NCBI GenBank assembly: GCA_964609835.1
Contig: CAZSTH010000006.1
Span: forward strand, 5,379 to 69,378
DNA from: an uncultured Thermoanaerobaculia bacterium
Lineage (GTDB): Bacteria > Acidobacteriota > Thermoanaerobaculia > Thermoanaerobaculales > Sulfomarinibacteraceae
Length of the DNA stretch: 64,000 bases
Direction: 5' to 3'
Shown here: positions 1 through 38,108 of the stretch, one piece after another
Layout of the letters: every line of letters begins with the position of its first letter
How positions within the stretch are numbered: position 1 is the first letter of the stretch
The notes under the pieces: model-generated
Told to the model about the DNA's origin: nothing
What the model saw: only the letters and a program-made list of their open reading frames with translations
Database searches by the model: none
Program-made: the position numbers and the translations under genes

Positions 1-3000
1 GCCGACACGGCAGCCGCCAGCGTCACAGCGACCTGGACCACCTCGTCGTCGTATTGCAGAACGGCGGTGCTCCGACCACCCACCCCGAGGGCCGGAGCGC
101 TGGCGGTCACCGTCAGCTCACCGGCCGGCACCGCGGTGAAGACCACCGTGCCGTCGCCGCCGGTGACCGTCGGGAACCGGCCGCCGCCGGTCGATGTCAG
201 TGTGACGTTGGCCCCGGCGACCGCCTGCGCATCTGCGTCGAAGACCTGCACCGCGACCACGCCCTTCGGCCGCAGCACGACGCGATACGGATCCGCCACC
301 GAGCCCCCGCCGTCGAGCGGCACCCCGCCGTCGAAGCTCGACGCCGACACCCGTGCCTGACGCTGTTCGCCACCGAGCTCCTGGACGGTGATCGAGCCGC
401 TGCGCTCCGTCAGCACGCCGGGATAGACAAAGGCGTGGCCAGGATACGGAGGCTGCGGTGCAAGCAGCGTGAAGTCGAAAACGGGTTGCTGCTCGAGGCG
501 AACGCTCAATGGTGTCGTCGACGGGTCGACCTCGTTGAGCCCGCCCGCCAGCGACTCGAACACCCGGAACGCGACCTCTCCGGCAGGCTCGAGGACCAGG
601 TCGACCTCGGCCACCGGTGTGGTGGCGGTGAGAGCAACCTCGGCGCCTGCCCGCCGGGCCGAGCCCGGGACCGCGCCGGTGAGCTGGAAGCTGCCTTCGG
701 GGATCCCGAAGAAATCGAACCGCCCGAGGCTCTCCGGCTGGCCGGACGTGGTGTCCAGCGCTGTGATCGGACCACCCGACGTCGAGCCGCGAAGCTCGAC
801 CGTCCCCCCGGGCACGGGCGCTGTCTTGCCCGGATCGTCGTACAACGTGCCGCCGACCGCGCCGCGCTGGTCGACGTACAGCGTCCGCTCCACGAGCTGC
901 CCCGGCTGGGTCAGGGCCAGCCCATCGACACGACCACTGCGTCCGGTCGGGGCATGGAAGGCGGTCACCGAGTAGCTGCCGAGGGGCAAGGCATCGAAGA
1001 CGGCGAGCCCATCGACGTTCGCCACCGTCATCTCGTTGACTCCGCCACCGACCTTGCGGATCGTGACCTGGGTGTCGGACAGAAGGGCGCCGCTCTCAGG
1101 GTCGCGGATCGTGACCTCGATGGTGCCCACCGAAGTCGTGAGCACGATGTCCGACAGCGTCACGACCTGCCAGTCGTCGGTGATCGCGCCCTGTGCGGAC
1201 CCGCGGCGGGTCAGCTGACCGGGATCGCGGGCCACCACCCGCACACCGCCCGCGAACACGTGCCCGACCTCGTACCTCCCCTCCTCGTCCGCGCTGTACC
1301 AGCCGCTGCCAATCGGCAGCCTGCGGAAGGGATAGGCCTCCTCGCGGACGTAGTACTGGGCATGGGACAGCGGCACAAGCTCGTCGCCGATGCGTTCGAA
1401 GACCCTGCCGTTGACGGTGCCCTGGGCCTTCATTCGCACCGTCAGATCGAGGGTCTGGCCGCCGCTCCCGAAGATCGCGGAGGCCCTCCCCACACGCTCG
1501 ACGGTCCCCACGATGCCCTCAGCCCGGACCTCCAGCCGGCCCTCAGGAACCAGCTCGAACCGGAACGTCCCGGTGGCATCGGTGCGCTGGGTCTGCGGCA
1601 GGAGGTGCTCGGTGTGCAGCTCAACCTCGAAATCGGGGATCGGGGTCACACCATCGACGTTGACCAGGGTGCCGGTGACGGTGGAAGAGCCGTCGAAAAC
1701 AATGTCGACCGACCTCGACTGGCCGGCCCATTCGATCATCCCGGTCACCGTCCGCGCACCGTGGAAGGGGCTGAAGGCGGTGATTTCGTAACGGCCCACC
1801 GGCAGCTCGAGCTGCAGATTCCCGTTGGGATCCGTCACGGCCTCGATGGCGGTGCCCCGCGGGGTCACCTTTCGGGCCGTCTCGCTGTAATAGGTCGGCC
1901 GGTAGTACACCTCGGCCCACACGCTGCTGCCCTCACCGCTCGACACCTGGAGATCGACGACACCCGATCCCACCAGCTGCACCGTGGCAAAGGGACGGTG
2001 GCCGCCGAACACGATGTGGACCTCGTGTGCCTGGCCGAAATAGCCGATCCGCCCCTCGTCGAGGCCGTCCCCGGCGTGGGCGATGAGATCCCACTCGCCG
2101 AGATCGAGATCGTTGAAGGTAAAGCTCCCGTCCGCGAGCGACGTCACCTCCTGCCACGGCACCCCGTCGAGGATAGCGATGACTTCAACACCGCCGAGAG
2201 GCCTCCCGAGCGGATCGAGCACGACCCCGTCGATGCCACCCCGCATCTCGCGGAGCACGATCGGCTGCGCGTTGACCACATCAGGGGAGGTCTCGAGGAC
2301 CGCCACCTCGACGTCACCCTGCAATTGCCGTTCAGTGTCGATGGCAGATACGGTGTAGTTGGAGCCGGTGGCCGCCTGCACCGGCACACCCTCGATGCGG
2401 TAGCCACCGTCAGCGTCACTCGACGCATAGACCCCGGGGCCTGGGATGAAGACGGTCGCGCCATCCACCGGCAGCAGATCGCCGGACACCGGATCGTCGA
2501 AGTAGACAAAACCGGCGACCGACTTCGGCGGCGACACCGGCAGCACGAGCTCGACCTCAACGGTTTGGTCGGCGGCAAGGATGATGTCGGTCAGGACCGA
2601 GGTGCGGCTGATGCGCCAGTCCGCCGCCTGCACGGTGACCTGTCCTGCCGGCACCTGATCGAAGCGGAAGTGCCCGTAGGGATCGGTCTCCACCTCGCCG
2701 AGCAAGGCGCCGGCAGCCCAAACACCGACCTGTGCACCGCTGACCGGCGAAGTTTCGTCGTCCTCGAGCCGCAGGACCGTACCCACAACCACGCCCAACC
2801 CGGGCGGCTGGGTGCGGGGCAGCTCGAGCAGCACGTCCACGGTGTCCCCGGGCTGCGCGATACCAACGGTTGCGTAGACGGTACGTCCCTCGGGGTCGCG
2901 ACCGGTGAGAGTCAACGGACCCACCGGCATGGCCGGCACCGTGAAGTTGCCGCTGTCGTCGACGAACGCGGTCTCGGACTCGTTGAACAGCGTGCTTGCC

Positions 3001-6000
3001 ACCGTCACGCTGCCGTCGGAAACTGGCGCACCGCCGTCGAGATACACGAGCCTGCCGTTCACGGTGCCCCGACCCAGCAACGCGATGTTGATGCGCGTGA
3101 TCTGGTTCTGCAGGCGAATCGTCGACCTGACCTCTTCCACCGCCGCGGGCTCGGTGGCCGGATCGTCGCCTTCCGGGACGATGGCCCGCAGAATGAACTC
3201 TTCTTCGACGAAGGGATCCCAGTGCGGCGCCTCGACGAAATCGAAGTAGAACGCGCCGTCGTCGCCGGTCGACGTCTCACCGACCAGATCGAGCACCGTC
3301 TTGTAGCCGGTCACCGTGTCCTCGAGGCGCGGGCGGATCAGCTTGACCACGGCGTTAACCGCCGACTCTCCCGTGCCCCGCAGCACCTGCCCGCCCACCA
3401 GGCCGCCGTAGTGGCGGGGAGGGTGCTCGATCATGGGCGGAGGCGGGCTTTCTCCGAGCGTGTTGCCAAACTCATCCATCAGGTTCAATGGGTCGATGAG
3501 GTGCTCATGCACAACGAGCGGAGCCGAAGTGCTTCCGTCCCAGAGCGCACTGATCGGGCTCTGATAACGCACGTTGACCACGCGTGCGCTCGGCTGCAGA
3601 AACGCCTGGCGGCCGCTCTTTTCGGCGATCCACGGTTCGCCTCCATCCTCGAAGGTGGAGCGAATGCGATAGCTGTCCGCGGTCTGCCCCGACACCTCGT
3701 CGGGTGGCCGATTGAAGAGGTAGCTCACGCCCTGCCCGTAGCGGTTCTCTCCGGCGCTGATGCCGTAGTCCTGGCGCGCTCCGATGATCCGGAAGGCCGG
3801 CAAGGGCACGTCGTCGAGAAACGCCGTGGCGCCCGCCACAGGCTGGCCCGTCGAGAGATCGACGAGCTCGAACCCGCCGTCGGACGGGTCGACAACCCCG
3901 GCGCCGGCGGTCACCGCGTAGACGGTGTGGGCCGGCACCGTCACCTGGCCGAAGTCGATGCGTCGGTACCCGCCATCGACCGCGTCGCCGACAATCAGCA
4001 GCAGGCGTCCGGCCGCGGGCGAATCGCCAGAGTTCTCGATGGAGATCTCATGGAGCTCGTCGGCCTGCACCGAGCCGACCACCGCCAGTGGGATGTCACG
4101 ACCGCCCGCGGGATCCTCCGATACCGTGAAAATCTCGCCGAAGTCGAGGCTCCGCACCCGCTCTTCGAACTCGCCGGGATGGGCGAGCACAGCCCAGTCG
4201 TCCTCCGCCGCTTGCCGGATCTCGAGCGCCGGCACTTCGGCCGTGTCCCCAGGCAGCAGCATCGCCGCCAGGTAGGGATCGGCGTACGAGGTAGTGACCG
4301 CGAAATGATCGAAGAGGCCCTCTGCGTCGAGGCCGTGCGACTCCTGCTCGGCACGGAGGAGGCCGGCAAGCTCCACGCCCACCTGGCCACCCTTGTCGGT
4401 CAATCGCCTCAACCCGTCGATCTCGAGCAGCGGCGACCGATTGCCGAGCTGGTCGAGCAGCAGAACCTGCAGACTCTCAAGGAATCCATCGCCAAGGAAG
4501 ATCCGCTGGCCCGCAAAGCCGAGGTCGGCCGCCCGCTCCTCCACATCGGAGCGGATCACGCGCGGCAGCTCGGGAGGCGCCATCCCGGCCGGGGCCACCG
4601 CCAGGCTGTAAGCCAGGCCCAGAAAGTTCGTCACGGCGCTGAAGAAGCCGTCGGTCTCCGTGAACGGCGCCGACAGCCGCTCGGAAAAGCGCGGCAGCAC
4701 CAGGGTCGCCGGCGACAGCGGGATACCGAGCTCGCCGACGCCGGTGTAGAGCTGGATGGCACCGGACCCCGAGGCGGTTTCGAAGGTGCCACCGACCACC
4801 TGACCGGTCACGTCGGCGACGAGGCGGTACTCGACCGTCTCGGACTGCCCGGGTTCCAGCACCGTGATCTCGCGCAGGAAATCGTCCGCCGGATCCTGTT
4901 TGCGGGCACCGGTCATGTGCTCTTCGCGAATCTCCACCGAAACCAGGTTCTGCGTCACCCTGGAAAGATTGGTGACGGTGACGTACAGCGTGTAGGGGGT
5001 GTCCTTGCGGACCACGTCCGGATGGCTGAAGACCAGGTGGAACCGGGCGTCCACCACCTCCACCGCCGCCTGTGCGCTGGTCGCCACCGGCACCGTGGCC
5101 TTGCCCGGCCGCACCAGCTCGCCGGTCACGTCCATCTGCAGCGCGTGGGTCCCGGCTGCCAGGCCCTCGATGGTCCACGACGACGACGCCTGTCCACCTG
5201 GACCGACGACACCGCTGCCGTCGGCGCCGAGCATCGGAACCTGCTGGCCCGGGGCCACCGGCGGATCGGTCTCGGCGATCCGCAGCACGTTACCGTCGGG
5301 CAGCCGAAGCGTCGCGTGCAGGTTGTCGAGCTCGACGCCCGAACCCGCCGGCGCGCCGTTGGCGACGATCATGGTGGCGTCGAAGAACTGATTGAGGAAA
5401 GAAACGTTGCCCGGCATGACGATGGCACCGAAGACCGGGAACGTGATGGGAACGTAGACCTCCTCGTCCATCTCGAGAGGCCGGCGCTCCGGGATCTCCA
5501 GCGTGAAGGGCACGATGTGCGGCGGCTGCCAGCGCTGCACCAACTGCGCCACATCGGACGGCAGACCGTCGAGCTGGACGGTGGGCCGATCGAGGACCTC
5601 GACCTCCCCGCCGCCCTGGTACAGCACCGGGAGATTGATGATCACCAGCTCCGACTCGAACGCGAACCCGACGGCGAAGTTGTAGCCCTGAAAGTTCTCC
5701 TGGGTGATCGAAATGCCCCTGGCCTCGAGGTCTTCGAGGCTGAGGGTCGTGACGGTCGCCGAGGCGAGGACGATCTGGCGGACGTGAATCACCGCAATGG
5801 GAGGATCAGCGCTCTGGATCACCGAGTTGTCAGAGGTGTCCACGAGGCGGATGTTCTCGAGCAAGTAGTCGCCCTGCTGCTGGAATCCCGGCAGGACGAA
5901 GGTGCCACCCGGCACCGTCGTCAGTGGAATCGCCTCCGGCAACTCCGGCCCGCGCAGCTCCGCCCGCAATTGGAGACCGATCGTCCAGGGATCGCCCGAT

Positions 6001-6248
6001 GAGGCCGCCCCGCACTCTTCGTCGCCCGTGCCGTAACAGGTGCGCACCGTGGCGCGCTCGCCGATGTTGACGACCTGATCCGCATCGTTGACCTGGTCGT
6101 CCGCGTAGATCGTCACCCGCGTGCCCCGCACCTCCAACGCGCCTTCAACGATCAGCCCGTTCGCCTCGACTGTGCCGCCTGCTGCCGCACCCGCGATCGC
6201 CAGTGCGACCGCGATCCGCCCGAAGTGCGGCAGCGGACGGGGAATCAC
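1..6248 (-). CDS. Giant secreted repeat protein. More than 2,080 aa lie in the window and the C-terminus runs off the left edge. It has a signal peptide followed by about nine carboxypeptidase-regulatory-like/Ig-like beta-sandwich repeats.
   Basis: Own minus-strand translation. GTG at 6248 has GGGGAG 7 nt upstream, and an in-frame TGA at 6302..6300 closes the frame upstream. The N-terminus VIPRPLPHFGRIAVALAIAGAAAGGTVEANG looks like a signal peptide. The frame stays open to position 1. Recurrent units include GTVNGRLVYLDGGAPVSDGSVTV..DDSGNFTVPAMPVGPLTLTG and VTGTLVNVDGVTPIPDFEVELH..TDATGTFRFELVPEGRLEVRA. It is absent from the ORF track because it has no in-window stop. Confidence 0.85.
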   Translation of the reverse strand, partial: MIPRPLPHFGRIAVALAIAGAAAGGTVEANGLIVEGALEVRGTRVTIYADDQVNDADQVVNIGERATVRTCYGTGDEECGAASSGDPWTIGLQLRAELRGPELPEAIPLTTVPGGTFVLPGFQQQGDYLLENIRLVDTSDNSVIQSADPPIAVIHVRQIVLASATVTTLSLEDLEARGISITQENFQGYNFAVGFAFESELVIINLPVLYQGGGEVEVLDRPTVQLDGLPSDVAQLVQRWQPPHIVPFTLEIPERRPLEMDEEVYVPITFPVFGAIVMPGNVSFLNQFFDATMIVANGAPAGSGVELDNLHATLRLPDGNVLRIAETDPPVAPGQQVPMLGADGSGVVGPGGQASSSWTIEGLAAGTHALQMDVTGELVRPGKATVPVATSAQAAVEVVDARFHLVFSHPDVVRKDTPYTLYVTVTNLSRVTQNLVSVEIREEHMTGARKQDPADDFLREITVLEPGQSETVEYRLVADVTGQVVGGTFETASGSGAIQLYTGVGELGIPLSPATLVLPRFSERLSAPFTETDGFFSAVTNFLGLAYSLAVAPAGMAPPELPRVIRSDVEERAADLGFAGQRIFLGDGFLESLQVLLLDQLGNRSPLLEIDGLRRLTDKGGQVGVELAGLLRAEQESHGLDAEGLFDHFAVTTSYADPYLAAMLLPGDTAEVPALEIRQAAEDDWAVLAHPGEFEERVRSLDFGEIFTVSEDPAGGRDIPLAVVGSVQADELHEISIENSGDSPAAGRLLLIVGDAVDGGYRRIDFGQVTVPAHTVYAVTAGAGVVDPSDGGFELVDLSTGQPVAGATAFLDDVPLPAFRIIGARQDYGISAGENRYGQGVSYLFNRPPDEVSGQTADSYRIRSTFEDGGEPWIAEKSGRQAFLQPSARVVNVRYQSPISALWDGSTSAPLVVHEHLIDPLNLMDEFGNTLGESPPPPMIEHPPRHYGGLVGGQVLRGTGESAVNAVVKLIRPRLEDTVTGYKTVLDLVGETSTGDDGAFYFDFVEAPHWDPFVEEEFILRAIVPEGDDPATEPAAVEEVRSTIRLQNQITRINIALLGRGTVNGRLVYLDGGAPVSDGSVTVASTLFNESETAFVDDSGNFTVPAMPVGPLTLTGRDPEGRTVYATVGIAQPGDTVDVLLELPRTQPPGLGVVVGTVLRLEDDETSPVSGAQVGVWAAGALLGEVETDPYGHFRFDQVPAGQVTVQAADWRISRTSVLTDIILAADQTVEVELVLPVSPPKSVAGFVYFDDPVSGDLLPVDGATVFIPGPGVYASSDADGGYRIEGVPVQAATGSNYTVSAIDTERQLQGDVEVAVLETSPDVVNAQPIVLREMRGGIDGVVLDPLGRPLGGVEVIAILDGVPWQEVTSLADGSFTFNDLDLGEWDLIAHAGDGLDEGRIGYFGQAHEVHIVFGGHRPFATVQLVGSGVVDLQVSSGEGSSVWAEVYYRPTYYSETARKVTPRGTAIEAVTDPNGNLQLELPVGRYEITAFSPFHGARTVTGMIEWAGQSRSVDIVFDGSSTVTGTLVNVDGVTPIPDFEVELHTEHLLPQTQRTDATGTFRFELVPEGRLEVRAEGIVGTVERVGRASAIFGSGGQTLDLTVRMKAQGTVNGRVFERIGDELVPLSHAQYYVREEAYPFRRLPIGSGWYSADEEGRYEVGHVFAGGVRVVARDPGQLTRRGSAQGAITDDWQVVTLSDIVLTTSVGTIEVTIRDPESGALLSDTQVTIRKVGGGVNEMTVANVDGLAVFDALPLGSYSVTAFHAPTGRSGRVDGLALTQPGQLVERTLYVDQRGAVGGTLYDDPGKTAPVPGGTVELRGSTSGGPITALDTTSGQPESLGRFDFFGIPEGSFQLTGAVPGSARRAGAEVALTATTPVAEVDLVLEPAGEVAFRVFESLAGGLNEVDPSTTPLSVRLEQQPVFDFTLLAPQPPYPGHAFVYPGVLTERSGSITVQELGGEQRQARVSASSFDGGVPLDGGGSVADPYRVVLRPKGVVAVQVFDADAQAVAGANVTLTSTGGGRFPTVTGGDGTVVFTAVPAGELTVTASAPALGVGGRSTAVLQYDDEVVQVAVTLAAAVS

Positions 6249-6293
6249 ATCCCACTCCCCCGCTGGCTGGACCCAACGCCGAGATTCACGAAC

Positions 6294-6430
6294 CTGCCTT
6301 CATGGTGAACGGAAGGCTCCTTTCACCTGACGGAAACGCCCTCGTGTACATTAATAGGGCACCGGCGACGCGTTGGCAATCGCCCGTTTGAGTGGTTTTT
6401 CTCATCACTTTGAGTGAATTTAAGGAGAAT
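6294..6430 (-). promoter_or_regulatory. Copy 1 of a 137-bp promoter/leader element, upstream of the giant repeat protein gene.
   Basis: On the minus strand there is a 33-nt AT-rich box AAATTCACTCAAAGTGATGAGAAAAACCACTCA (6421..6389). It is followed by -35 TTGCCA (6379..6374), a 17-nt spacer and -10 TATTAA (6356..6351). The leader hairpin GGTGAAAGGAGCCTTCCGTTCACC (6327..6304) encloses AGGAG, and ATGAAGGCAG follows from 6303. The element is 117/137 identical to 10298..10434. Confidence 0.7.
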
Positions 6431-6519
6431 CCGTGCATGAAACATAGGTGCCATGGCACGTGCCATAGGTGTCGGTGTCGGCCCTGGTATCTGTGCACCT
6501 GCTCTGATTCACCTCGCCC

Positions 6520-9500
6520 TTACGACGGATCGCCAACCAGGACGAACGGCGCCCAGATCATTGCCGAGGGGTAGACGCGGCGGATTTCGCTGCGCGCCTG
6601 CCGAAGCGCCTCCGCCTTGGTTTCCCCGGCCAACCATCGAGAGTAAAAGATCTCCATGAGCTCGGCCGTGGGCTCGTCGGCCACCGACCACAGCGTGACC
6701 ACCACGCTGCGAGATCCGGCGGCCAGAAACGCGCGGCCCACCCCGAACACACCCTCTCCTTCCCGGACCTCGCCGATCCCGCTGTTGCAGGCCGAAACCA
6801 CCACCATTTCCGTGTCGACCAGCGGCATCGAGATGATCTCGTCGAGGGTCAGCAGGCCCCACTCGTCCCTTCGCCGGAAGGCTTCGTTGGCACCCGCCAA
6901 CGCCAGGCCGGCACGTGCGAGAGGGTTGTCCTCGGGGACCGCTCGCAGTCCGCTGTACTCCGACAACAGCAGGGGAGTCAGATTCGAAGGGTTCGCCGGA
7001 AGCTCACCTGGAATCGAGTACCCGTGGGTCGCGAAGTGCATCAACCACGGGGACTCGACGAAGTCCATCGCGCCCTCGTTGGCATCGAGGTCCGTGAACA
7101 CCAGAACGTCGAGCGAGGTTCGATCCTCCAGCAGGCGGACCACCGCGTCGGCTTCGCGCCGGGTGCCCGGCAGTCGACCGAGATGGACGTTCTGGAACGG
7201 TGCAATGCCCCAGGCGCGACGACGCGATCCGCGCCGCTCCACGACCCATCGGCTCTCGTCCGGCGGCTTGGGGGGCATGGTGTCGAAGTCCGGGTCGGCA
7301 ACCACGATCGCGCTTCGCTTCCGGAGCTGTGGTCCATCCCACAAAGCGAGGTCGCGGCCGTTCGAGAGGTAGCTGATGCGAAACTCCTCGTCGAGATAGG
7401 CCCCGGATCGATCGCGCATGCAACCGAAGGGCAGACGGGCGAGCGCACCGTCCGGGCTCACGAGCAGCCACTCGATGCCTGTCGTGGTAGTCGACCACGG
7501 GCCCACCAGCAGATCGAAGACCCGGCTCCCGAGGTTGCGCCCGGCGGTGGTCTGATCGAACCCCCGCGCGATCGCGGCCAGGTACTCGAACACCACGCCG
7601 TCGATCTCGGTCGCCGGGCCAAGATCGACGAGAAGGGGGCCGGCGGATCCGGCGGGCACCACGAAGACCAGATACCGGTCCTCGCCACCCACCTGGCCCG
7701 CGCGACAGAAATCGACGTAGGCCGAGCCTGGCGGCAGCCGGTCCTCGAGCTCACGGGTCGTGAAATCCACGCCGCCCGTCCAGAATCCGGATTCCGTCAG
7801 CTTTTGGTGGAGGTCCTTCTCGATCTCGGACCGCTCCTCGCGCAGCCGTTGGATCGCCTCCCGACCACGCCGGTCGCTGCGGCCCTCGAACCACAGCACT
7901 GCCAGCTCATTGTCGATCGCCCGGAGCTGCTCGGCCAGCTCTCGAGTCTCCTCAGATGGGTCGAGGGCCAGCATCTCGCTTCGTGAGCGCTGGGTTTCCA
8001 GCAACGCGCCCTTGATCCGCAACCAGCCGTCGAGCGTCCGCCGCACCTCGTGCGCGCCGGCGCCGGCGTGGCGAGCGGTGTGCAACATGACCTCTGCAGC
8101 CCTCGCACGCAGCCGCTGCAGCGCGGCCACCTGCTGTCGCTCCGAGAGAACCGAAAGCAGGCTCTGGAAGTGATCGAGATCCGCCGCCTGGGCCTGGAAG
8201 AACAGCTCCGCGCTCCGGCGGTGATTGCCCTCCCTTGCCAGCGCGTTGGCCAGCAGGTGCCGCGCCTCCGACATCAGTATGTAGTCGTCGCCGTACAGGG
8301 ACTGCCAACGTTCGAGGCAGTGCTCGAGAATGCGCGCGGCCTCCGCGTGCCGTCCCGCAGCGAGGTACACGCAGGCCAGCGCGTACTCGGTCTCGATGAC
8401 CTCCGGGGTGTCCGAACCGAAGCGCGCGATCAAGATCTCCCGCGCGCCGGCACACGCCGTGAGCGCTTCGGAGTACCGACGCGCCTGCATGAAGTAGATG
8501 CCCAGCTCCCGCAGAGCAACAGCCGTGTCCGGATGGTCGCGGCCAAGGTGTTCGACCCGCCGCGACAGTCCCTGGCGCTGCGCCGCGATCGCGGCAGACC
8601 GCTTCCCGTCGGCGCTCTCGATCTGCGCCTCGAGCCGATAGGTGTCAGCCATGTGGAGCGGGCGCCATGCGTGCATCATCAACCGGTGCAGCTCGTCGAC
8701 GATCCCACGGGCGTCGTCATACCTCCCGGAGGCGATCAGCACCTTCACGAGACCGGACTTGGCTCGAAAAAGAGCATCCCAATTCCGCCCCTGGCTGAGA
8801 TCGAACGCTTCGATCGCCGACCGGTAGAGCCTCTCTGCTTCGCCCAACCGCCCGGAACGGCGGTAGACATCCGCCACGCGCGCCACCAGCTCCGAGAACT
8901 CCCATCTCGACGAGGACATCTCCGACAACGCCGAATCGTCGAATGCCGCCAAGTGTCGGTTGGCCTCGCGGAAACGGCCGAGCTGCTGGAGGGACACCGC
9001 GAGCCGCGCGCGGATCAGCTCCTTCTCGATCATCGACTCCATTGAGCCGGAATCCGACAGCTCGAGGGCCCGCGACAGGGGAGCGACCGCCGCTTCGGGC
9101 CGGCCGAGCTCATACAGGGTGGCACCGACCCCCGCGTGCGCTTCAGCCACCAGTTCGTGCTCTCCAGGCAAAAGGCGTTCTCTCACCTCGAGCACCTCCT
9201 GCCACCGCCACAGCGCGTCGTCGAAGTTTTGTTCGCGATAGGCGAACGCCGCAGATCGCCGCTGTTCGCCGACCCGCCACAGCTCACGCCGGTCGGCGTC
9301 CGTGTCGAATGCCAGGTAGACCGACGCGATCGCCGCCACCGCGGCCCCGGTCCACGCCACTCCCAGAGGGAAACGCCTCAACACCAGCAACCAACAGACC
9401 ATTGCGAGCGCGAAGATGCCGATTCCCCGATTCACGCTCAGCACGATGCGTTCGTCGAGGGACAGCAGCCGCAGCTCGACCGCGAACCAGAGAAAGACGA

Positions 9501-10212
9501 CCGACGATGTCACGAAGAGTGCCGCGACCGCCGCCGACAGCCAGCGAGACGCGAATTGCAGCGTCGACCGAGTCTCGGCTTCGAAGAAACGCCGCGAGGC
9601 CAGAAAGCCGACCACCCCACATCCCAAGGCCGCGCACACGAACTTGAACGGCCACGACACCGGGATTGAAAGCCATCCGAGCAGAGGGCCCCCGAGGCTG
9701 ATCGTGCCGACCGTCACCACCGCGAACGTCAGGACCGCGAGCTCGACTGCGAGCACGGAAGACGCCCACCCGGGCAGACGGCCGAGCGCGGCGAGAACCG
9801 CCACCGCGATTGACACGACGCCGCAGCCCACGATGCCCAGTCGGAAGGCGGTCGCCAGATCCAACCCGAAGGCATCCCACAGATCCGCCAGCGCCAGCCA
9901 CAGCCCGCCGGCCGCGAGCCCGCCGAGCACGACGGCCGTCAGTATGCGCAGGAGCCTGTCCTGCCACGCCACATCGACGATCGCGGTCGCAGCCCTCGAG
10001 GCGACGAAAAGTACCGGCAGCAGGACGACGCAGAGCGTGAGCCAGCCCGGCCACAACCCAGCGGACCTCAGGAAACCACGAGCCACCAGCGCGCTGGGAC
10101 CGAAGAGCAGCAGCGTCATTGCCAGCGCTACGGCCACGCGGACTGCACCAGCCGATGGCGGCGGCTCGTTCGTACGGGCGGACGACGGTGTGCGTGCCGA
10201 GGAGACTGTCAT
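6520..10212 (-). CDS. Polytopic-membrane TPR-CHAT protein (caspase-like protease domain), 1,230 aa.
   Basis: The first ~300 aa are a run of hydrophobic helices. The middle has TPR-like repeats (e.g. AEAHAGVGATLYELGRPEAAVAPLSRALEL) and a coiled-coil stretch. The C-terminal CHAT signature includes HFATHGYS (His), VVVSACNSG (Cys) and GVGRAFLAAGSRSVVVTLWSVADEPTAELM. GAGG lies 7 nt upstream of the ATG. Confidence 0.85.
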   Translation of the reverse strand: MTVSSARTPSSARTNEPPPSAGAVRVAVALAMTLLLFGPSALVARGFLRSAGLWPGWLTLCVVLLPVLFVASRAATAIVDVAWQDRLLRILTAVVLGGLAAGGLWLALADLWDAFGLDLATAFRLGIVGCGVVSIAVAVLAALGRLPGWASSVLAVELAVLTFAVVTVGTISLGGPLLGWLSIPVSWPFKFVCAALGCGVVGFLASRRFFEAETRSTLQFASRWLSAAVAALFVTSSVVFLWFAVELRLLSLDERIVLSVNRGIGIFALAMVCWLLVLRRFPLGVAWTGAAVAAIASVYLAFDTDADRRELWRVGEQRRSAAFAYREQNFDDALWRWQEVLEVRERLLPGEHELVAEAHAGVGATLYELGRPEAAVAPLSRALELSDSGSMESMIEKELIRARLAVSLQQLGRFREANRHLAAFDDSALSEMSSSRWEFSELVARVADVYRRSGRLGEAERLYRSAIEAFDLSQGRNWDALFRAKSGLVKVLIASGRYDDARGIVDELHRLMMHAWRPLHMADTYRLEAQIESADGKRSAAIAAQRQGLSRRVEHLGRDHPDTAVALRELGIYFMQARRYSEALTACAGAREILIARFGSDTPEVIETEYALACVYLAAGRHAEAARILEHCLERWQSLYGDDYILMSEARHLLANALAREGNHRRSAELFFQAQAADLDHFQSLLSVLSERQQVAALQRLRARAAEVMLHTARHAGAGAHEVRRTLDGWLRIKGALLETQRSRSEMLALDPSEETRELAEQLRAIDNELAVLWFEGRSDRRGREAIQRLREERSEIEKDLHQKLTESGFWTGGVDFTTRELEDRLPPGSAYVDFCRAGQVGGEDRYLVFVVPAGSAGPLLVDLGPATEIDGVVFEYLAAIARGFDQTTAGRNLGSRVFDLLVGPWSTTTTGIEWLLVSPDGALARLPFGCMRDRSGAYLDEEFRISYLSNGRDLALWDGPQLRKRSAIVVADPDFDTMPPKPPDESRWVVERRGSRRRAWGIAPFQNVHLGRLPGTRREADAVVRLLEDRTSLDVLVFTDLDANEGAMDFVESPWLMHFATHGYSIPGELPANPSNLTPLLLSEYSGLRAVPEDNPLARAGLALAGANEAFRRRDEWGLLTLDEIISMPLVDTEMVVVSACNSGIGEVREGEGVFGVGRAFLAAGSRSVVVTLWSVADEPTAELMEIFYSRWLAGETKAEALRQARSEIRRVYPSAMIWAPFVLVGDPS

Positions 10213-10297
10213 GCGAGACCTCGGATCAGTTTCTCGTGGTCAAATACGCGGCACAACCGACCGTCCGACGGCTGGCGACGGGTTGGCCCAATCGAAG

Positions 10298-10434
10298 CTG
10301 CCTTCATGGTGAACGGAAGGCTCCTTTCACCTGACGAAAACGCCCACGTGTACAACAATAGGGCGCGCGGCCGTCGGCAGCAATCGCCAGAATGAGTGGT
10401 TTTTCTCATCACTTTGAGTGAATTTGGGGAGAAT
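10298..10434 (-). promoter_or_regulatory. Copy 2 of the 137-bp promoter/leader element, upstream of the CHAT gene.
   Basis: It has the same 33-nt box (10425..10393). The -35 TTGCTG (10383..10378), 17-nt spacer and -10 TATTGT (10360..10355) follow, with an identical hairpin and ATGAAGGCAG. The ATG at 10307 opens a 32-codon uORF whose TGA overlaps the CHAT ATG (ATGA at 10212..10209). Confidence 0.7.
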
Positions 10435-10477: not shown

Positions 10478-11161
10478 TCAGCCGATGTGCTCGGCGAGCA
10501 CCCGCAGACGGTCGGGACGGTGCACCACGACCTGTTTCGGCTCGGCCGTGAGGAGGCCGTCCTCCTCGAGCTTCTTGAAGGTGCGCGACAGGACCTCGGG
10601 CGCGGTGCCGCACTGGGCGGCGATCAGGTTGCGGGGCTCGGCCAGCGGGATGGCGTCCCCCGGTACGAGGTCACGCGCACCAGCGCGGCCCAGGAGGTAG
10701 ATGGCCAGCCGCTCCTCCACCCGCCGCTGGGTCAGCAGCTCGAGCTTGGCCGCCAGCTTGCGGGTCCACGTCGAGACCGAGCCGAGCATGGCCAGCCCCA
10801 GCTCCGGCGAGGAGGCGAGCAGCTCCAGCAGCGCCGCGCGCGGCAGGCCCCACACGACACTTGCCGCCACGGCCTCGGCGGTGGCGGGATAGGTACCCTC
10901 GGCGAAGACCGCGGCCTCGGCGAAGCTCTGGCCCGGCTGGACCAGGTGCAGCAGCAGCTCGCGTCCCTGCGGCGAGTAGCGCACCAGCTTGAGGCTGCCG
11001 CTGACAACGGCGAACAGCGCCTCCGCCTCCTCGCCCTCGTGGAACAGGATCTCGCCGCGGTCCAGCCGGCGCTCGTGGCCGGCGGAGATCACCCGCCGTC
11101 GCTGGTCGTTGCTCAGCTGTTCGAGCAACGGCACCTCTTCCAGGGGCGAACGGTGGGACAT
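10478..11161 (-). CDS. Crp/Fnr-family transcriptional regulator (cNMP-binding domain plus C-terminal HTH).
   Basis: The cNMP-like region is RLDRGEILFHEGEEAEALFAVVSGSLKLVRYSPQGRELLLHLVQPGQSFAEAA. The HTH is RNLIAAQCGTAPEVLSRTFKKLEEDGLL, with an E-x-x-S-R recognition helix. There is no N-terminal Cys cluster. Confidence 0.85.
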   Translation of the reverse strand: MSHRSPLEEVPLLEQLSNDQRRRVISAGHERRLDRGEILFHEGEEAEALFAVVSGSLKLVRYSPQGRELLLHLVQPGQSFAEAAVFAEGTYPATAEAVAASVVWGLPRAALLELLASSPELGLAMLGSVSTWTRKLAAKLELLTQRRVEERLAIYLLGRAGARDLVPGDAIPLAEPRNLIAAQCGTAPEVLSRTFKKLEEDGLLTAEPKQVVVHRPDRLRVLAEHIG

Positions 11162-12647: not shown

Positions 12648-13676
12648 TCAACGATCGTCGGTCATGGCGGTGCCTCCGACGTGGGTGTAGAGCGGCGAGT
12701 CGAGCTCCTGGAGGCGGAAGTTGTACTCCGCCTCGGTGATGTTGGTGTGCCAGTGGCCGGCGGCCTGGAAGCCCGCCACCACCGCCAGGTAGAGCCCGAT
12801 TGCGAGGGCGGTGGCGGTGACCGGTCGCAGCCAGCGGGCGCGGCCGAGGAGCCGGGGCGGCCCCACCGAGAGGCATCCCTCCACCGGGCAGTTGACGACG
12901 CAGTCCTGGCACGATGTGCACTCGATGGAGCGCACTCGCTGCGCCGTGTGGACCCGCAGCCGACCGGGGCACGCGCGGGTGCAGCTGCGGCAGTCGGTGC
13001 ACAGCGCGGGATCGCGGGTGACCTTGAGCGGCGCCAGCAGCCCGAGCACCCCCACCAGCGCGCCGTAGGGGCAGAGGTAGCGGCACCACAGGTCACGGAC
13101 GAAGACCGAGCCGACGACGAGGATGCCGATGACGGCAACGGTCAGCCGCGACGGCTCGGCGAAGAACAGCCACATCTTGGCGTCGACCACCTTTGCATAG
13201 GGGCTCGCGAGAAAGGCCTCGACCCCGTTCGGGTCCATCGCGAACCAGATCGCCCACACGAAGAAACCCAGCAGCACGAATTTGAGGCCGCGCAGCGGGA
13301 TGTCGAGCCACCTCGGCGGGGTCAGCGTGCGGCCGACCGCACGGATACCGAGGCGCCCCAGCAGTTCGGAAACCAGGCCGACCGGGCAGAGGTGGGAGCA
13401 GAACGACCGTGGCACCACCAGCGACATCAGACAGATGCCGACAAAAATGGCGAGGCCGGCGGGGTGGATGGGGTCGACCACGCCGGTGTGGAGGAGGTGC
13501 CGCAGGCCGAGCATGGCGTCGATGGGCAGGAAGGCCTCGACGCCGGGCGGCCGCGGCACCGACGGCCAGCGGCCCTGCATGTGCGGCACCACCCAGAGGG
13601 TGAACTGGACCCCGATGGCGAGCACCACGGCGGTCACGATCCACTGGACGGCGCGGCGGGCTCGGAGGACCTTCAT
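12648..13676 (-). CDS. Membrane-bound polyferredoxin (NapH/MauN/NosR-like 4Fe-4S protein).
   Basis: TM helices are interleaved with CPVGLVSELL and RYLCPYGALVGVL. The C-terminal ferredoxin motifs are CTDCRSCTRACP and CTSCQDCVVNCP. I chose the MKVLRARRAVQWIV start (ATG 13676). TTG 13754 is the track's alternative start. Confidence 0.75.
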   Translation of the reverse strand: MKVLRARRAVQWIVTAVVLAIGVQFTLWVVPHMQGRWPSVPRPPGVEAFLPIDAMLGLRHLLHTGVVDPIHPAGLAIFVGICLMSLVVPRSFCSHLCPVGLVSELLGRLGIRAVGRTLTPPRWLDIPLRGLKFVLLGFFVWAIWFAMDPNGVEAFLASPYAKVVDAKMWLFFAEPSRLTVAVIGILVVGSVFVRDLWCRYLCPYGALVGVLGLLAPLKVTRDPALCTDCRSCTRACPGRLRVHTAQRVRSIECTSCQDCVVNCPVEGCLSVGPPRLLGRARWLRPVTATALAIGLYLAVVAGFQAAGHWHTNITEAEYNFRLQELDSPLYTHVGGTAMTDDR

Positions 13677-13758
13677 GGGGACAGCGTGGACGATTCGAGA
13701 CGTCACGGCATTGACCGGCGTCAAGGGGAATGTCACGGGGAGGGGGAGATTCAAAATT

Positions 13759-13816
13759 TCGGATGTCGGATGTCGGATTTTCGGAAGGCTGTGCTGTGCG
13801 GGCGGGACGCCCGCAC
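13759..13816. repeat. Intercistronic 3x heptamer tandem repeat plus a perfect 9-bp GC hairpin.
   Basis: TCGGATG TCGGATG TCGGAT lies at 13759..13779. GTGCGGGCG-gga-CGCCCGCAC lies at 13796..13816. Both sit in the 166-bp gap between the NTPase-fusion gene and the polyferredoxin gene. Confidence 0.6.
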
Positions 13817-30946: not shown

Positions 30947-31336
30947 TCCTCGCCTGAACGCCCTCACAGACTTCAGCGGGCGGCACCTCCCGCCCTTCAT
31001 CGCGCGGTCGATGTCGTTATCGGTCATCAGTCGCCGCCCTTCTTGACACCTGTCGGTCGAGTAGTCCATTCTCTTCATATGATCCACATCCCGGCGAGCC
31101 CCGATCGGAGAGCACGGTTCGGCGCGTTCTCCCCGATCTAGGTGTGTCGGTCGGTCACCCCGGCCCACCGCTCGGAGCCCTGGACCGGAGAGAGGAGGTC
31201 AGTTCCGTTGCAGGTGGTCGCTGGGGGGCGCGCACCCCCCGGTGCCCGTTCGCCGGCTTTTCCGGGGCTTGTTATTTCGATCCATGAGCGGTCGCGTGGC
31301 CTGTGCACCGCGACTGGGAAGAAGGAGGAGAGGACA

Positions 31337-34300
31337 ATGAGAAACACTGGACACTGGTGGGCGGGCGCCACCCTTGTGGTGGGAACCCTCTTGGTGCTGC
31401 CGTGCGTGTCGGCCGCCGGCGACGCACCACAGCCGAACGTCAACGCCGCGGTGAAGCGCGGGTCGTCTCCGGCGCTCCGCGATCTACCCGCCTTCGTCCC
31501 GGACGCCACGGCGCCCGAGGAGGTCAGGGAGATCAACCCGCGCAACGCGAGACTCCCGGCGGCCCTCCTCGAGGCCGACGAGCCCGAGGGCGAGCTCGAC
31601 CCGGCTGTGCAGAGCATGCACTTTGCCGACAATATGCCCGCCCCTGTGGTGAACTTCGAGGGTATCGGCAATGTCAATGGTGTGCTGCCGCCGGACACCA
31701 CCGGCGATGTCGGCCCCGACCACTACGTTCAGTGGGTGAATCTATCGTTCGCCGTGTTCGACAAGACGGGCGCAGTGCTCGCAGGCCCCTTCAACGGCAA
31801 CGTTTTGTGGACGGGTTTCGGCGGCACGTGCGAGACCAGCAACGACGGTGATCCCATCGTCCTCTACGACCACATTTCGGATCGCTGGGTGATGAGTCAG
31901 TTCACCGGGGATAATCACCAGTGCATCGCCGTGTCCAAGTCCGGCGACCCGACCGGCGAGTGGTGGCTTTACGACTTCCTGGCCGACGCCAACTCGGGCT
32001 ACTTCAACGACTATCCGAAATTCGGCGTGTGGCCCGACGGCTACTACTTCAGCGCGAACATGTTCGGAGCCTCCTTTCAGGGTGCCATGGCGGCGGTCTT
32101 CGAGCGCGACGCCATGCTCAACGGCGATCCAGCGCAGATGATCTGGTTCTTCACACCGGACCTCGCGGACTCGCCGTCGTTCAGCATTCTCCCGGCCGAT
32201 CTCGACGGGCTCAACCTGCCGCCGGCGGAAGCGCCCAACCCGTTCATCATGTCGGTGGACGACGCGTGGGGCTACGACTTCCCTTACGACACCGACGCCC
32301 TCGTGGTGATGGAGTTCGCGGTAGACTGGGACACCCCCGGCAACTCCACATTCGGACCCACCGAGGTCATCGATCTCACCGCTGCCGGTCTCGGCTTCGA
32401 CAGCAACATGTGCGGCTACAGCCGCAACTGCATTCCACAGCCCGATACGGCCCAGGGCGTGGACGCGTTGTCGAGCCGCGCCATGTACCGGCTCCAGTAC
32501 CGCAACTTCGGCACCCACCATTCCCTGGTGGCCTCGCAGACGGTCGACGAAAACGGCGCTGACCACGCAGGCGTCCGCTGGTACGAGCTGCGCGACGAGG
32601 GCATGGGCTGGGGCGTCTTGCAAGGCAGCACCTTCGCTCCCGACGACGCGCACCGCTGGATGGGCGACGCCGCAATGGATGCCTCGGGTAACATCGCGGT
32701 CGGCTACAGCGTGTCGAGTTCGACGGTATATCCCAGCATCCGCTGGGCCGGCCGGCTGGCCAGCGATCCGGTCAATTCCCTCGCACAGGGGGAGTCGGAG
32801 GTCTACACCGGCGGCGGTTCGCAGCAAAACACATCCGCCCGTTGGGGCGACTACTCGACCATGGCGGTCGACCCAGTGGACGACTGCACCTTCTGGTACA
32901 CCCAGCAGTACATAGAGAGCACGGGCAACGCCCCGTGGCAGACCCGCGTCGCCTCGTTCAAGTTCGACTCGTGCACCACGGGACCGGCAGGCACCGTAGA
33001 GGGCACGGTCGTCAACTCCGCCACCATGAACCCGCTCGAGGGCGCCCTGGTGGAGGTCGGTGGGTTCTCCACCGTGACCGACACTATGGGCTTCTACTCG
33101 ATCACGGTCCCCGAGGACACCTACGACGTCACCGCCTCGAAGTTTGGCTTCACCGCCCTGACGGCCACCGACATCGAGGTGTTGGACGGGCTCACCGTGA
33201 CCCAGGACTTCGAGCTCACACCGGTCGGCCCCGCCGGGCTCGACGGCTACGTGACCGGCGAGGGCTTCAGCTGGCCGCTGTACGCGATGGTCGAGATCTC
33301 GAGCGCCGGCGAGACCGTCGCCGAGCTCTACACCGACCCGCAAAACGGCTACTTCGAGGTCGAGCTGCCCATGAGCACGCCCTACGATCTCGTCGTGACA
33401 TCTCTGATCGAGAGCTACCTGCCCGCGACGCGCAGCATCGTGCTCGACATGGGCGGCCAGACCGAGAGCTTCGTGCTCGAGGATGACGGCACCGGCCCGT
33501 GGAACAACTGCCGCTGGATCGACGGCATCGAGGAGGACTTCGATGGCGGCTCCTTCCCGCCCACCGGTTGGACCACCATCAACAACGGTGGCGACTGCGT
33601 GTGGTCGGACACCGCCACGGTCGGCCGATCGAATCTGACGCCGGGTTCCGGGGTCGCCGCAACGGCGGACTCCGACCGCTGCGGGATCGGGACCACCATG
33701 GACACCGACCTGGTGTCGCCGGTGATGGACCTCTCCGGAGCGACCGAGGTGTCACTGGAGTTTGCATACTCCTACAACGACATCGGCAGCGCCGACTTCG
33801 CCGCCGCGTCGGTCAGTGCGGACGGCGGGGCCAGCTGGACCAACATCGTGACCTGGACCTCGGACGTGTCGGGAACTCTGACCTCCGACGTCTCAGGCCT
33901 GCTCGCGGGGTCGGCCAACGCCGTGGTGCGCTTCACCTACTTCGCACCGAGCTGGGACTGGTATTACCAGGTGGACAACGTGGTCGTCACCAGTGACGGC
34001 GGTGACGCCTCCTACGAGTGCACGCAGCTGTTGGGCTCGCTCGTCGAAGGCTTCGTGACCGATGCCAACTCGGGCGACGGGCTGATCGGCGCCGAGGTCA
34101 GCAACGACATCGGCGGATCGACCACCACCGTGGCCACCCCCGATGACCTGATGCTGCCCGACGGCTTCTACACCCTCTTCACGCCGCTGCCGCTCGGTGA
34201 TGGGCCGTCCACAAGGACCTTCACCGCCACAGCGAACGGGTACGGAGCGGGCGAGGTCGCCGTCAACCTGACGCCGAACACAGTCAATGCGCTCGATTTC

Positions 34301-36034: not shown

Positions 36035-36072
36035 TCGCAACATCGGCCGTCAACGGGCGGTGCAGAACCTAC

Positions 36073-36099
36073 GCCGGGCCTCAGGGCCCGGCGTTTTTT
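36073..36099 (+). terminator. Rho-independent terminator.
   Basis: GCCGGGCC-tcag-GGCCCGGC is followed by g and TTTTTT. Confidence 0.8.
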
Positions 36100-36272
36100 G
36101 CCCGCTCATCATGGTTGGAGACGCGATATAGTAGATCTCAAGGTCGGGCGCGATTGGAGACCGAAAACACGATCGAGCGAAGCACCGGGGGCCGCATGGT
36201 GCAGCGGCAGGTGGCGTTCTGTGAAGGGGACGTGCCCGCCAACCGGTCGATCGAATCAGGAAGGAGCAGACG

Positions 36273-38108
36273 ATGCGGAGTAGCTCGCGATGTTGGTTGA
36301 CGGGAGTGACGATCATGGTCGCGCTGATTTCGAACGCGGCAACGGTTCCGGCCGCCGGCCCCGAGGAGGCCGACCAGGCCGGTCTCGAGCTCGCACCCGA
36401 TGTCCTCGAGTCGCGCCTCGGGCGCGGCGAAACCGAGGGACAGGCGCTCGAGATCCTGAACTTCGGCGACACCGAGGCAACGGCCCTTCTGTTCCTACTT
36501 CCCTACTCGCCGTGGGTACCCGGCGTACCGATGGACCACATCGACATCCCGCAGCTGACCGCCGAGCAGTCGGCAGCACTGACCTCCCGACTCGTCGGAG
36601 CAACCGGACGTCAACCTGCGGCGACAAGTGCCACCGGCGAGGTCGTCTCGTCGTGGGCCCACGGTTTGACCATCGGTTGGGGCCTCGGCGTCAACCAGCT
36701 GACCGACACTATTTGGGTCGGCGACCCCGGGGCCGCAGGCGGCACCGATCTCGACTATGAGTTCACCCGCGACGGCGTGGCCACCGGCGCCACCATCGAC
36801 ACCTCGCCGTGGGCAGGGGTCTTCGCGGCCGACATGGCCTTCGATCCGATCTCCGGCATGCTGTGGCAGCTCGACGTCGGCGGCATCAACTGCATCCACG
36901 AGCTCGACCCGGTGACCGCATCGGCCACCGGCGAGACGATCTGCTGGAGCGCGCCGTCGTCGGAGCGGGGTCTGGCCTACGATCCGCTGTCGCAGACGTT
37001 CTTCGTTGGCGGTTGGAACACCCTCGCGATCACCCGCTTCGACCGGGCGGGCAACGTGCTTCAGGTCGTCGACGTCGGTCTCGCGATCTCGGGCCTGGCC
37101 TACAACCCGCAGACCGAGCATCTGTTCGTGATCGAGAACTCGATCGAAGACGCGGTCACGGTCCTCGATGTCGGCGACGACTACAGCGAGATCGGGTCCT
37201 TCACCGTGCCCGGGTTTGGGAACTATGCCGGCGCCGGCCTCGGCATCTCCTGCGACGGCCACCTGTGGGCGGCGAACCAGGCGGACATGAAGGTCTACGA
37301 GATTGATTCGGGCGAGACGGAGGCCTGCCTCGTCGCGTCCCTGCCGTGGATCGAGCTGACGCCAGGCTCCGCCGTGGTCCCTCCCGATCCAGGCGAGCAG
37401 GGGCAGGTCACCATCGACGTTCAGTTCATCGCCGACGGCCTCACCCACTTCGGGCTGGTCCAGGCCACAGTGCTTCTCACCGACGGTGACGGAGACGTCG
37501 CAGACCAGGGCCGTGTCTGCATGACGCGGGCGTTCGACGACATCGCGGAGAGCTTCTGGGCCGACGCCTCGATCCACGCCACGGCCGGCGCACGGATCAC
37601 CACCGGTTGCGGACTTGGCGATTTCTGCCCGAGCGACGTGATGCTGCGACATGTGATGGCCAACTGGCTGGTCAAGCTGACGCACGGGCCGGATTTCTCT
37701 CCGCCTCCCTGCACCGAGACCTTCGGCGACGTGGTCTGCGAGCTGACGCCGAACTCGGACTACGTCGAGCAGCTCTACGACGATGGCATCACGACCGGTT
37801 GCTCGGCCGACCCGTTGCTCTTCTGTCCGTATGACGGAGTGACCCGAGCGCAGATGGCGGTCTTCCTGCTGCGGGCCATCGAGGGACCGGACTACTTTCC
37901 GCCACCCTGCACCGGCATCTTCGGCGACGTCAACTGCCCGAGCTTCTGGGCCGCTGATTGGATCGAGGAGCTCTACAGCCGGGGCATTACAACCGGCTGC
38001 TCGGCTGACCCTCTGCTTTACTGCCCGTTCGACCTCACGAACCGGGCGCAGATGTCCGCGTTCGTCCAACGGGCGTGGGAGCTGCCCATGTGTGAGGCCG
38101 ACGACTGA
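36273..38108 (+). CDS. 611-aa secreted beta-propeller-like protein ending in three Cys-bridged SLH-like repeats. It is a paralog of the C-terminal part of 31337..36034.
   Basis: AGGAAGGAG lies upstream and the N-terminus MRSSSRCWLTGVTIMVALISNAATVPAAG looks like a signal peptide. NHL/YncE-like repeats include LAYDPLSQTFFVGGW and LAYNPQTEHLFVIEN. The SLH-like repeats occupy 37533..38105. Confidence 0.85.
   Translation: MRSSSRCWLTGVTIMVALISNAATVPAAGPEEADQAGLELAPDVLESRLGRGETEGQALEILNFGDTEATALLFLLPYSPWVPGVPMDHIDIPQLTAEQSAALTSRLVGATGRQPAATSATGEVVSSWAHGLTIGWGLGVNQLTDTIWVGDPGAAGGTDLDYEFTRDGVATGATIDTSPWAGVFAADMAFDPISGMLWQLDVGGINCIHELDPVTASATGETICWSAPSSERGLAYDPLSQTFFVGGWNTLAITRFDRAGNVLQVVDVGLAISGLAYNPQTEHLFVIENSIEDAVTVLDVGDDYSEIGSFTVPGFGNYAGAGLGISCDGHLWAANQADMKVYEIDSGETEACLVASLPWIELTPGSAVVPPDPGEQGQVTIDVQFIADGLTHFGLVQATVLLTDGDGDVADQGRVCMTRAFDDIAESFWADASIHATAGARITTGCGLGDFCPSDVMLRHVMANWLVKLTHGPDFSPPPCTETFGDVVCELTPNSDYVEQLYDDGITTGCSADPLLFCPYDGVTRAQMAVFLLRAIEGPDYFPPPCTGIFGDVNCPSFWAADWIEELYSRGITTGCSADPLLYCPFDLTNRAQMSAFVQRAWELPMCEADD

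Follow-up and report, generated by a model that had tools for sequence, protein, structure and literature searches.

We analysed a 64-kb window, the whole 64,000-nt stretch of contig CAZSTH010000006.1 from an uncultured Thermoanaerobaculia bacterium, in which one 137-bp element lies on the minus strand both upstream of a giant repeat-protein gene and upstream of a gene for a CHAT protease with TPR repeats (CHAT-TPR). We consider it probable that each copy of this element is a complete factor-dependent promoter module together with the first ~50 nt of the transcript. The operator/promoter motif is new, its kind is familiar, and the lineage that carries it is unstudied. The two copies are as follows.

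6294..6430, minus strand: element copy 1, comprising operator, promoter and proximal leader, 5' of the giant CarboxypepD_reg-repeat gene.
10298..10434, minus strand: element copy 2, 5' of the CHAT-TPR gene, read as a derived duplicate.

Alignment of 6294-6430 with 10298-10434 required no gaps and reproduced the 117 of 137 identical positions counted in an earlier note on this DNA. Two blocks are fully identical between the copies, as that note had claimed: a 33-nt distal box, AAATTCACTCAAAGTGATGAGAAAAACCACTCA, and a 39-nt proximal block, CGTCAGGTGAAAGGAGCCTTCCGTTCACCATGAAGGCAG. Each occurs exactly twice in the 64-kb window, where shuffled sequences gave an expectation of zero. The 20 mismatches are clustered, and random placement would leave identical runs of at least 39 and at least 33 nt with P ~2.5e-5, so that the block-wise pattern of conservation described earlier is statistically real. 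Fifteen of the columns between the proposed -35 and -10 hexamers are essentially unrelated in the two copies, and the length there is equal. Outside the element, identity falls at once to background at both outer edges. The earlier statement that similarity stops after the ATG at the end of the element was correct as far as this fall in identity is concerned, but ~25 nt of weak, gapped similarity continue beyond the downstream end (from 6289-6293 and 10293-10297), consisting of TTCG, a 9-10-nt indel and TTGGG(T)CCA(G/A)CC. Because of this residual similarity, the duplicated unit was probably somewhat longer than 137 bp. A third, weaker copy was not found in the 64 kb with a profile of the two copies or, later, with a profile of the family. 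Exact-match scans for the box and the leader in genome contigs, and for the box in metagenome contigs, gave no match; the source genome is absent, in matching form, from the scanned collections, and our view of its own regulon is the 64-kb window. A small protein encoded across the element was also considered and rejected: although both copies leave the frame open, its sequence is AT-rich, contains TTA codons and carries non-synonymous differences.

Homologues of the element were found in other genomes. The N-terminal 950 aa of the giant protein have orthologues at 50-70% identity, several of which are named proteins of Thermoanaerobaculia (Acidobacteriota) metagenome-assembled genomes and so place the source organism. 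The closest orthologue (locus L002, 70% identity) came from the protein search, and one homologous element stands directly 5' of its giant gene (nhmmer E = 3.9e-5). When the window copies were aligned with L002, TGATGAGAAAAA, GATTGC, the TA of the -10 and GAGGGC proved invariant at fixed spacing, while the spacer differed. Metagenome contigs were then scanned with a pattern built from the positions invariant in these three sequences. The scan returned eight loci, seven of which are true homologues as judged by a profile of the window copies alone (nhmmer E 1e-8 to 1e-17); the remaining one is a chance match in AT-rich sequence. The resulting family counts ten instances (eight distinct) in ~six lineages whose GC content is 57-71%. 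Outside the window the element is present once per contig, always 5' of a gene and co-oriented with it. The genes that it precedes are listed here.

Window copy 1, L002, L011, L014 and L016, co-oriented: genes of the giant family.
Window copy 2, co-oriented: the CHAT-TPR gene.
L015, co-oriented: a gene for a protein with DUF6531 and RHS repeats.
L017, co-oriented: a gene for an 85-aa Zn-ribbon protein.

Homologous copies thus precede different genes, and what they conserve is the box, the geometry of -35 and -10 and the length of the spacer. This pattern sustains the earlier proposals of a regulon and, as far as family conservation can support it, of a promoter with an upstream factor-binding box. 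Further copies, which the note had suggested seeking in the whole genome, were found on other contigs as the seven metagenome homologues and L002, and a widespread repeat unrelated to gene starts, which the note had named as the outcome that would speak against it, was not seen. Within the source genome, two members of the regulon are visible. No regulator gene recurred next to the element in the loci examined.

We resolved the anatomy of the element by family alignment. Its parts, in order of transcription, are the following.

6401..6418, minus strand: operator 18-mer TTCACTCAAAGTGATGAG of copy 1, centred ~-66 from the predicted start in the family alignment.
10405..10422, minus strand: operator 18-mer of copy 2, identical to that of copy 1.
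6380..6400, minus strand: A-tract, then CCACTCAAAC and GGGCGA, between operator and -35.
6374..6379, minus strand: -35 hexamer TTGCCA of copy 1 (copy 2, TTGCTG at 10378-10383).
6351..6356, minus strand: -10 hexamer TATTAA of copy 1 (copy 2, TATTGT at 10355-10360).
6332..6343, minus strand: predicted transcript start GAGGGCGTTTCC of copy 1 (copy 2, GTGGGCGTTTTC at 10336-10347).

The operator has the two-fold symmetric family consensus YTCAYY-N6-GATGAG. It is a perfect 18-bp palindrome, CTCATCAATATTGATGAG, in L010, L013 and L017. Its left half, CTCATC, is perfect in these three loci and in L015 (6/6) and was kept although it lay outside the search pattern; L002 and L014/L016 match it at 5/6 positions, the window (TTCACT) and L011 at 3/6. 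The palindrome TCACT-caa-AGTGA, to which the earlier note had drawn attention, is present in the window and partly in L011, but it is not conserved in the family, and its centre is offset by 1.5 nt from the family-conserved symmetry. Operator-only sites elsewhere in the window occurred at chance level. In L010, L013 and L017 the element stands back to back with a divergent gene for a membrane/TPR protein (1058 aa in L010, 1219-4392, minus strand; truncated, 207 aa, in L017, 7258-7878, minus strand), and the perfect palindrome could serve both directions there.

Downstream of the operator, the A-tract occupies ~-57 to -53 when the start is placed at 6343. The sequence AAAAACCAYTCAAAT is kept in the family, where the search pattern held only AAAAA; the A-tract followed by CCAYTCAAAT forms a family-wide upstream flank, and CCAYTCAAAT was not imposed by the pattern. 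This region is possibly a docking site for the C-terminal domain of the polymerase alpha subunit (alpha-CTD), in the manner of an UP element, or the second part of the factor footprint. The -35 appears in the family as (G)GCGATTGC and reads TTGCNN in all members. Compared with TTGACA, TTGCCA matches at 5/6 positions and TTGCTG at 3/6. GATTGC is invariant between the window and L002, a locus found via protein orthology. The hexamers lie where the earlier note had placed them, 17 nt apart in each copy with a diverged spacer, and the same 17-nt distance holds in every member of the family with free spacer sequence. A TANNNT -10 is present in seven of the eight distinct sequences (TATTGT, TACCGT, TAACTT, TATTGT, TAATGT, TAGGTT and TACAGT), the sixth base being outside the search pattern. 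Exactly 8 nt after the -10, GAGGGCGTTTCC recurs in the window, L002, L011, L014, L015 and L016, also without having been part of the pattern, and the conserved GAGGGCGUUUCC at this position is the likely transcript start. Alternative sigma factors (extracytoplasmic function, sigma-54, sigma-28 and SigB-type) were compared by eye and set aside, as their spacings and motifs did not fit.

These features suggest the following mechanism. A dimeric DNA-binding protein, as yet hypothetical, would bind YTCAYY-N6-GATGAG ~66 bp before the start site. The bound factor, together with the A-tract and CCAYTCAAAT, would recruit housekeeping RNA polymerase to the weak TTGCNN -35 and TANNNT -10, and transcription would begin at the conserved GAGGGCGUUUCC. 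The leader would carry a purine-rich motif resembling a Shine-Dalgarno (SD) sequence in a hairpin, usually followed by a short upstream open reading frame (uORF). The module would be ancestral to the giant surface-protein gene, with a regulon that elsewhere takes in giant relatives and an RHS-repeat protein, and here a ~140-bp copy would have been placed before the lineage-specific CHAT-TPR gene, bringing it under the same control.

The layout invites comparison with known activators. Class I CRP-type sites lie near -61.5 or -72.5, and LysR-type sites lie near -65 with a second contact towards -35. Like activator-dependent sigma-70 promoters, the element has a two-fold symmetric 16-18 bp site before a weak -35, an adjacent conserved A/T-rich stretch at the place expected to bind alpha-CTD or a second subunit of the regulator, fixed core spacing, and the same module before several unrelated genes. 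It differs from them in that its -66 is counted from a predicted start, and in that we infer activation in preference to repression. By analogy, then, the layout would be that of an activator-dependent promoter of class I or LysR type. The half-sites CTCATC/GATGAG returned no matching operator and nothing relevant in a literature search, and we know of no operator that they match; of Fur, Rex, CIRCE, HAIR and LexA, none fits.

Several points weigh against a factor-dependent promoter. The operator-binding protein is hypothetical and the transcript start is a prediction. The metagenome search pattern itself prescribed GATTGC, TA and the right half of the operator, and for these positions L002 is the only independent evidence. 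The size of the regulon in the source organism is visible only through the 64-kb window. The left operator half in the window matches CTCATC at only three of six positions, and the -10 of copy 1, TATTAA, lacks the near-invariant final T. A strict sigma-70 scan called a promoter in neither copy, because TATTAA lacks that T and TTGCTG matches TTGACA at only 3/6. Finally, the genes concerned lie on one strand and no terminator was predicted between them, so that read-through from upstream is possible. Where the two copies differ, L002 agrees with copy 1 at nine positions and with copy 2 at six, including the GT of the -10 (hand counts). From this mixed agreement it follows only that the TATTAA of copy 1 looks derived, since copy 2 and L002 both end in GT.

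The history of the module was read from the neighbourhoods of its relatives. The genes upstream in L002 are unrelated to those in the window, and no CHAT gene was found next to the element or the giant gene in the loci tested, L002-L009; nor was a Crp gene found there. The element therefore appears to travel with the giant gene, and copy 2 to be derived: sequence comparison shows an ancestral module of the giant gene and its duplication, in this genome, in front of CHAT. The window copies share, letter for letter, a leader block for which each of the other lineages has a different sequence, and this points to a within-genome event, either duplication or gene conversion. The unrelated spacer would reflect either clustered replacement or long-term selection on the flanking blocks. 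A homologous element is absent in the distant giant-gene orthologues L004-L009. These have canonical TTGACA-N17/18-TANNNT promoters at a comparable distance, ~90-215 nt, before the start codon, followed by long structured leaders. They supply the local consensus for promoters and show that the giant family has its own sigma-A promoter and long leader. The upstream regions of L003-L009 held no common motif above shuffled controls except TTGACA. Two of these loci, L005 (~9040-9075) and L008 (~105-140), share a promoter TTGACA-N18-TA(G/A)G(C/T)T whose spacer contains a CRP-type palindrome (TGTGA-CGGAGA-TCACA in L005, TATGA-CACCGG-TCACA in L008), and their leaders have GGAGGTCGTACGT(T)CAC in common. 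Genes for a cNMP-binding protein and a guanylate cyclase lie 6-9 kb upstream in L005. This promoter is a different regulatory solution for the giant gene family.

The conserved part could instead act mainly as RNA, as a 5' leader in which an SD-mimic hairpin and a uORF control mRNA stability or translation. The variants include a STAB-SD-type 5' stabiliser, a CsrA-like target or a thermosensor, and any of them could coexist with a promoter. As the main explanation we regard it as doubtful. The relevant features, with the two large genes, are as follows.

6304..6327, minus strand: hairpin GGTGAA-AGGAGCCTTCCG-TTCACC, carrying an SD-like AGGAG (copy 2, 10308-10331).
6286..6303, minus strand: uORF of copy 1, MKAGS*, 5 codons, ending 37 nt before the giant GTG.
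10209..10307, minus strand: uORF of copy 2, 32 codons, with a stop that overlaps the CHAT start (ATGA).
6268..6285, minus strand: giant-gene-specific leader block ATCTCGGCGTTGGGTCCA, 16/18 identical to L002.
3..6248, minus strand: giant protein gene with CarboxypepD_reg repeats (Pfam), running off the window; GC content at third codon positions (GC3) 0.85.
6520..10212, minus strand: CHAT-TPR protein gene, 1230 aa; Pfam CHAT 2.1e-59 plus TPR repeats.

The 39-nt block, identical in both copies, contains a hairpin of -13.4 kcal/mol (z = -2.5) that can be extended to pair the ATG. The purine-rich GGYGARAGGRG followed by CCGWTC is kept in the family, as is the transcript start, and in each family leader a hairpin of some kind encloses the purine motif. 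There are two ways to draw a helix there, and they exclude each other. The helix of the type seen in the window has 65% of its cells paired, compared with 33-44% once the partner is slid, and 46/500 shuffles reached its covariation score. The family-type helix, in a register different from that of the window helix (GAACGG/CCGTTC in L002, GATCGG/CCGATC in L014), has 73% of its cells paired, compared with 27-46% after sliding; three of its pairs differ on both sides, and 5/500 shuffles reached its covariation score. Only about six lineages enter this comparison, and values of 5/500 or below can arise without any structure, as the tool itself warns; the comparative support for a leader helix is only suggestive. 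The RNAalifold consensus of the family reached only -1.08 kcal/mol, which is very weak. The Rfam search of the leader that the earlier note had proposed gave no match: Rfam 15 returned nothing relevant for the window region up to E = 10, and for six loci nothing up to E = 1. The GGA motif, which a CsrA target would show in hairpin loops over the SD of the regulated gene, occurs in the window, L002 and L014, and the loop of L011 (AAGGGG) lacks it.

The coding context bears on the same question. The window has 66.7% GC, and GC by codon position was used to tell real frames. The giant protein starts at GTG 6248: an SD sequence, GGGGGAG, lies 6 nt before it, the N-terminus resembles a signal peptide, and the orthologue starts align with it. 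The ATG after the hairpin (6301-6303 in copy 1, 10305-10307 in copy 2) starts neither large gene; the true starts, GTG 6248 and ATG 10212, lie 55 and 95 nt further on and have their own SD sequences. The hairpin described in the earlier note folds and holds AGGAG as stated, but this AGGAG is therefore the SD of neither large gene and lies 13 nt from the uORF ATG. The SD sequences of the large genes are separate from it, and the pairing of a regulated gene's SD or start that marks a thermometer was not found. An ATG follows the purine motif in the window, L002 and L011, and in copy 2, L002 and L011 the uORF runs up to the main start or stops no more than 4 nt from it (TGATG at the main start in L011, 4 nt before the main ATG in L002). 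On the other side, no uORF follows the motif in L014 and L016, the uORF peptides are unrelated between loci, and the uORF of copy 1 stops 37 nt early. The uORF of copy 2 has a GC3 of 0.63 (hand count) against ~0.85 for the genes of the window, which is not coding-like, and such open frames are common by chance in GC-rich DNA. The block ATCTCGGCGTTGGGTCCA is missing from copy 2 save for a weak, gapped resemblance.

Known leaders offer points of comparison. Like the SD-sequestering hairpins of ROSE and fourU thermometers, the element holds GAAAGGAG in a hairpin ~25-35 nt from the predicted 5' end; unlike them, it has no Rfam match, leaves the SD sequences of the main genes free and does not keep its helix in a conserved register. 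The STAB-SD of B. thuringiensis cryIIIA, GAAAGGAGG, is an SD-like 5' stabiliser to which the leader bears a putative resemblance; as there, the GAAAGGAG of the hairpin is not used as a main-gene SD. The element resembles stop/start-coupled uORFs in copy 2, L011 and L002, and departs from them in the early stop of copy 1, the missing uORFs of L014/L016 and the unconserved peptides. A leader acting as RNA leaves the conserved operator and the -35/-10 geometry unexplained. A bolder combination would have the transcript start, the purine motif between exclusive helices and the uORF ending on the main start form an undescribed translational control leader, layered on a dedicated factor with the undescribed operator CTCATC-N6-GATGAG. 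We think this unlikely; if true, such a leader would serve the giant surface proteins of Thermoanaerobaculia, RHS toxins and, here, the CHAT protease.

A separate observation concerns the giant-family start codon, which is overlapped by a minimal start-stop ORF in every lineage: ATG-TGA at 6245-6250 around GTG 6248 in the window, ATG-TAA at ~2575-2582 in L002, GTG-TGA-TG in L011, ATG-AGC-TGA-TG in L014 and GTG-AGC-TGA-TG in L016. The overlap could be a translational feature, or merely a conserved GATGTRAT.

We next weighed the idea that the neighbouring Crp/Fnr regulator binds the distal box and so ties its own operon to both large genes. The order on the minus strand is Fer4, radical SAM, Crp/Fnr, element copy 2, CHAT-TPR, element copy 1 and giant gene, and the features of the upstream operon are these.

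ATG 13675 to 12648, minus strand: Fer4 membrane protein.
12536-11193, minus strand: radical SAM protein.
10478..11161, minus strand: Crp/Fnr-family regulator, DNR/FNR-like, last gene of the Fer4 - radical SAM - Crp operon.
13711..13724, no strand assigned: FNR-type palindrome TTGACGCCGGTCAA, a perfect TTGAC-N4-GTCAA centred 42.5 nt upstream of ATG 13675.

The regulator gene does end 43 bp upstream of copy 2, as the earlier note had it, and the operator core TCATC-N6-GATGA has a CRP-like 5-6-5 geometry and an overall length similar to that of FNR/DNR operators. The closest solved relatives of the protein, however, are DNR and FNR-type, with the recognition helix E-x-x-S-R (PEVLSR). The matching FNR-type box stands before the first ATG of its own operon, whereas neither element copy holds TTGAT-N4-ATCAA or TGTGA-N6-TCACA within 2 mismatches. 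The operator reads TCA...TGA where the core of the CRP/FNR family is TGA-N6-TCA, and in L002-L009 the surroundings of the element and of the giant gene contain no Crp gene, the metagenome loci (L010-L017) not having been searched for one. That this protein, which the note had proposed to test on the box, binds it is thus very unlikely. Most likely the regulator controls its own Fer4 - radical SAM operon, and the box at 13711-13724 is its likely target, as judged from the motifs. A -10-like hexamer, CACGCT, ends 6 nt before ATG 13675, and the arrangement suggests that the operon is leaderless or nearly so, with an FNR/DNR-dependent promoter. Just upstream of the FNR box (context 13675-13790) lie a direct repeat CCGACATCCGACATCCGAAA and an AT-rich stretch. 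The Crp protein leads back to an identical Logan contig, SRR7048218, a run that no paper was found to mention.

It is barely credible that neutral recombination left the copies behind as a scar, or that they form a small mobile repeat, around an inserted CHAT cassette, with no regulatory role of their own: the direct repeats, 4004 bp apart, do bracket exactly one gene, and that gene has no close homologue (none above 30% identity among 5.8 billion proteins, and hence no orthologues for footprinting) and is not beside the element in the relatives tested, but the mismatches are strongly clustered, single-copy blocks are conserved in other organisms where proteins are only 30-70% identical and neutral DNA would be saturated, the elements elsewhere stand one per contig and always upstream of a gene and co-oriented with it, viral contigs gave no match, and, unlike a miniature inverted-repeat transposable element or other dispersed repeat, the element has two copies in 64 kb with no terminal inverted repeats or target-site duplication seen.

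Taken as a factor-dependent promoter, the element gives a concrete cis-regulatory motif, and sketches a regulon, for a class of uncultured Acidobacteria whose gene regulation is, to our knowledge, essentially uncharted. The regulon brings together a CHAT protease, an RHS-type toxin and very large proteins that are secreted or lie at the surface, which points to a co-ordinated cell-surface or antagonism programme. It would also be a case of regulatory co-option, in which an orphan, probably acquired, CHAT gene was recruited by a copy of a ~140-bp promoter module. An operator with an activator-dependent promoter is an arrangement of an ordinary kind, and the value of the element is as a lead and not as a new principle.

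Further observations were made elsewhere in the window. Between the CHAT stop and copy 1, at 6451-6469, lies a near-palindrome, CCTATGGCACGTGCCATGG, with the core GGCACGTGCC and flanked by the direct repeat CACCTATG; it has no T-run and was not called by the terminator scan. A second CarboxypepD_reg / DUF4394 giant protein is encoded at 31142-36034, with no element copy upstream. The regions 31142-38108 and 52700-56800, the first of which includes this gene, encode large secreted proteins that have SLH domains and repeats within them. The first of these regions contains a 300-nt direct repeat (35648-35947 and 37722-38021, 81% identical), and the second an S8 subtilase with an SLH domain (53006-55486).

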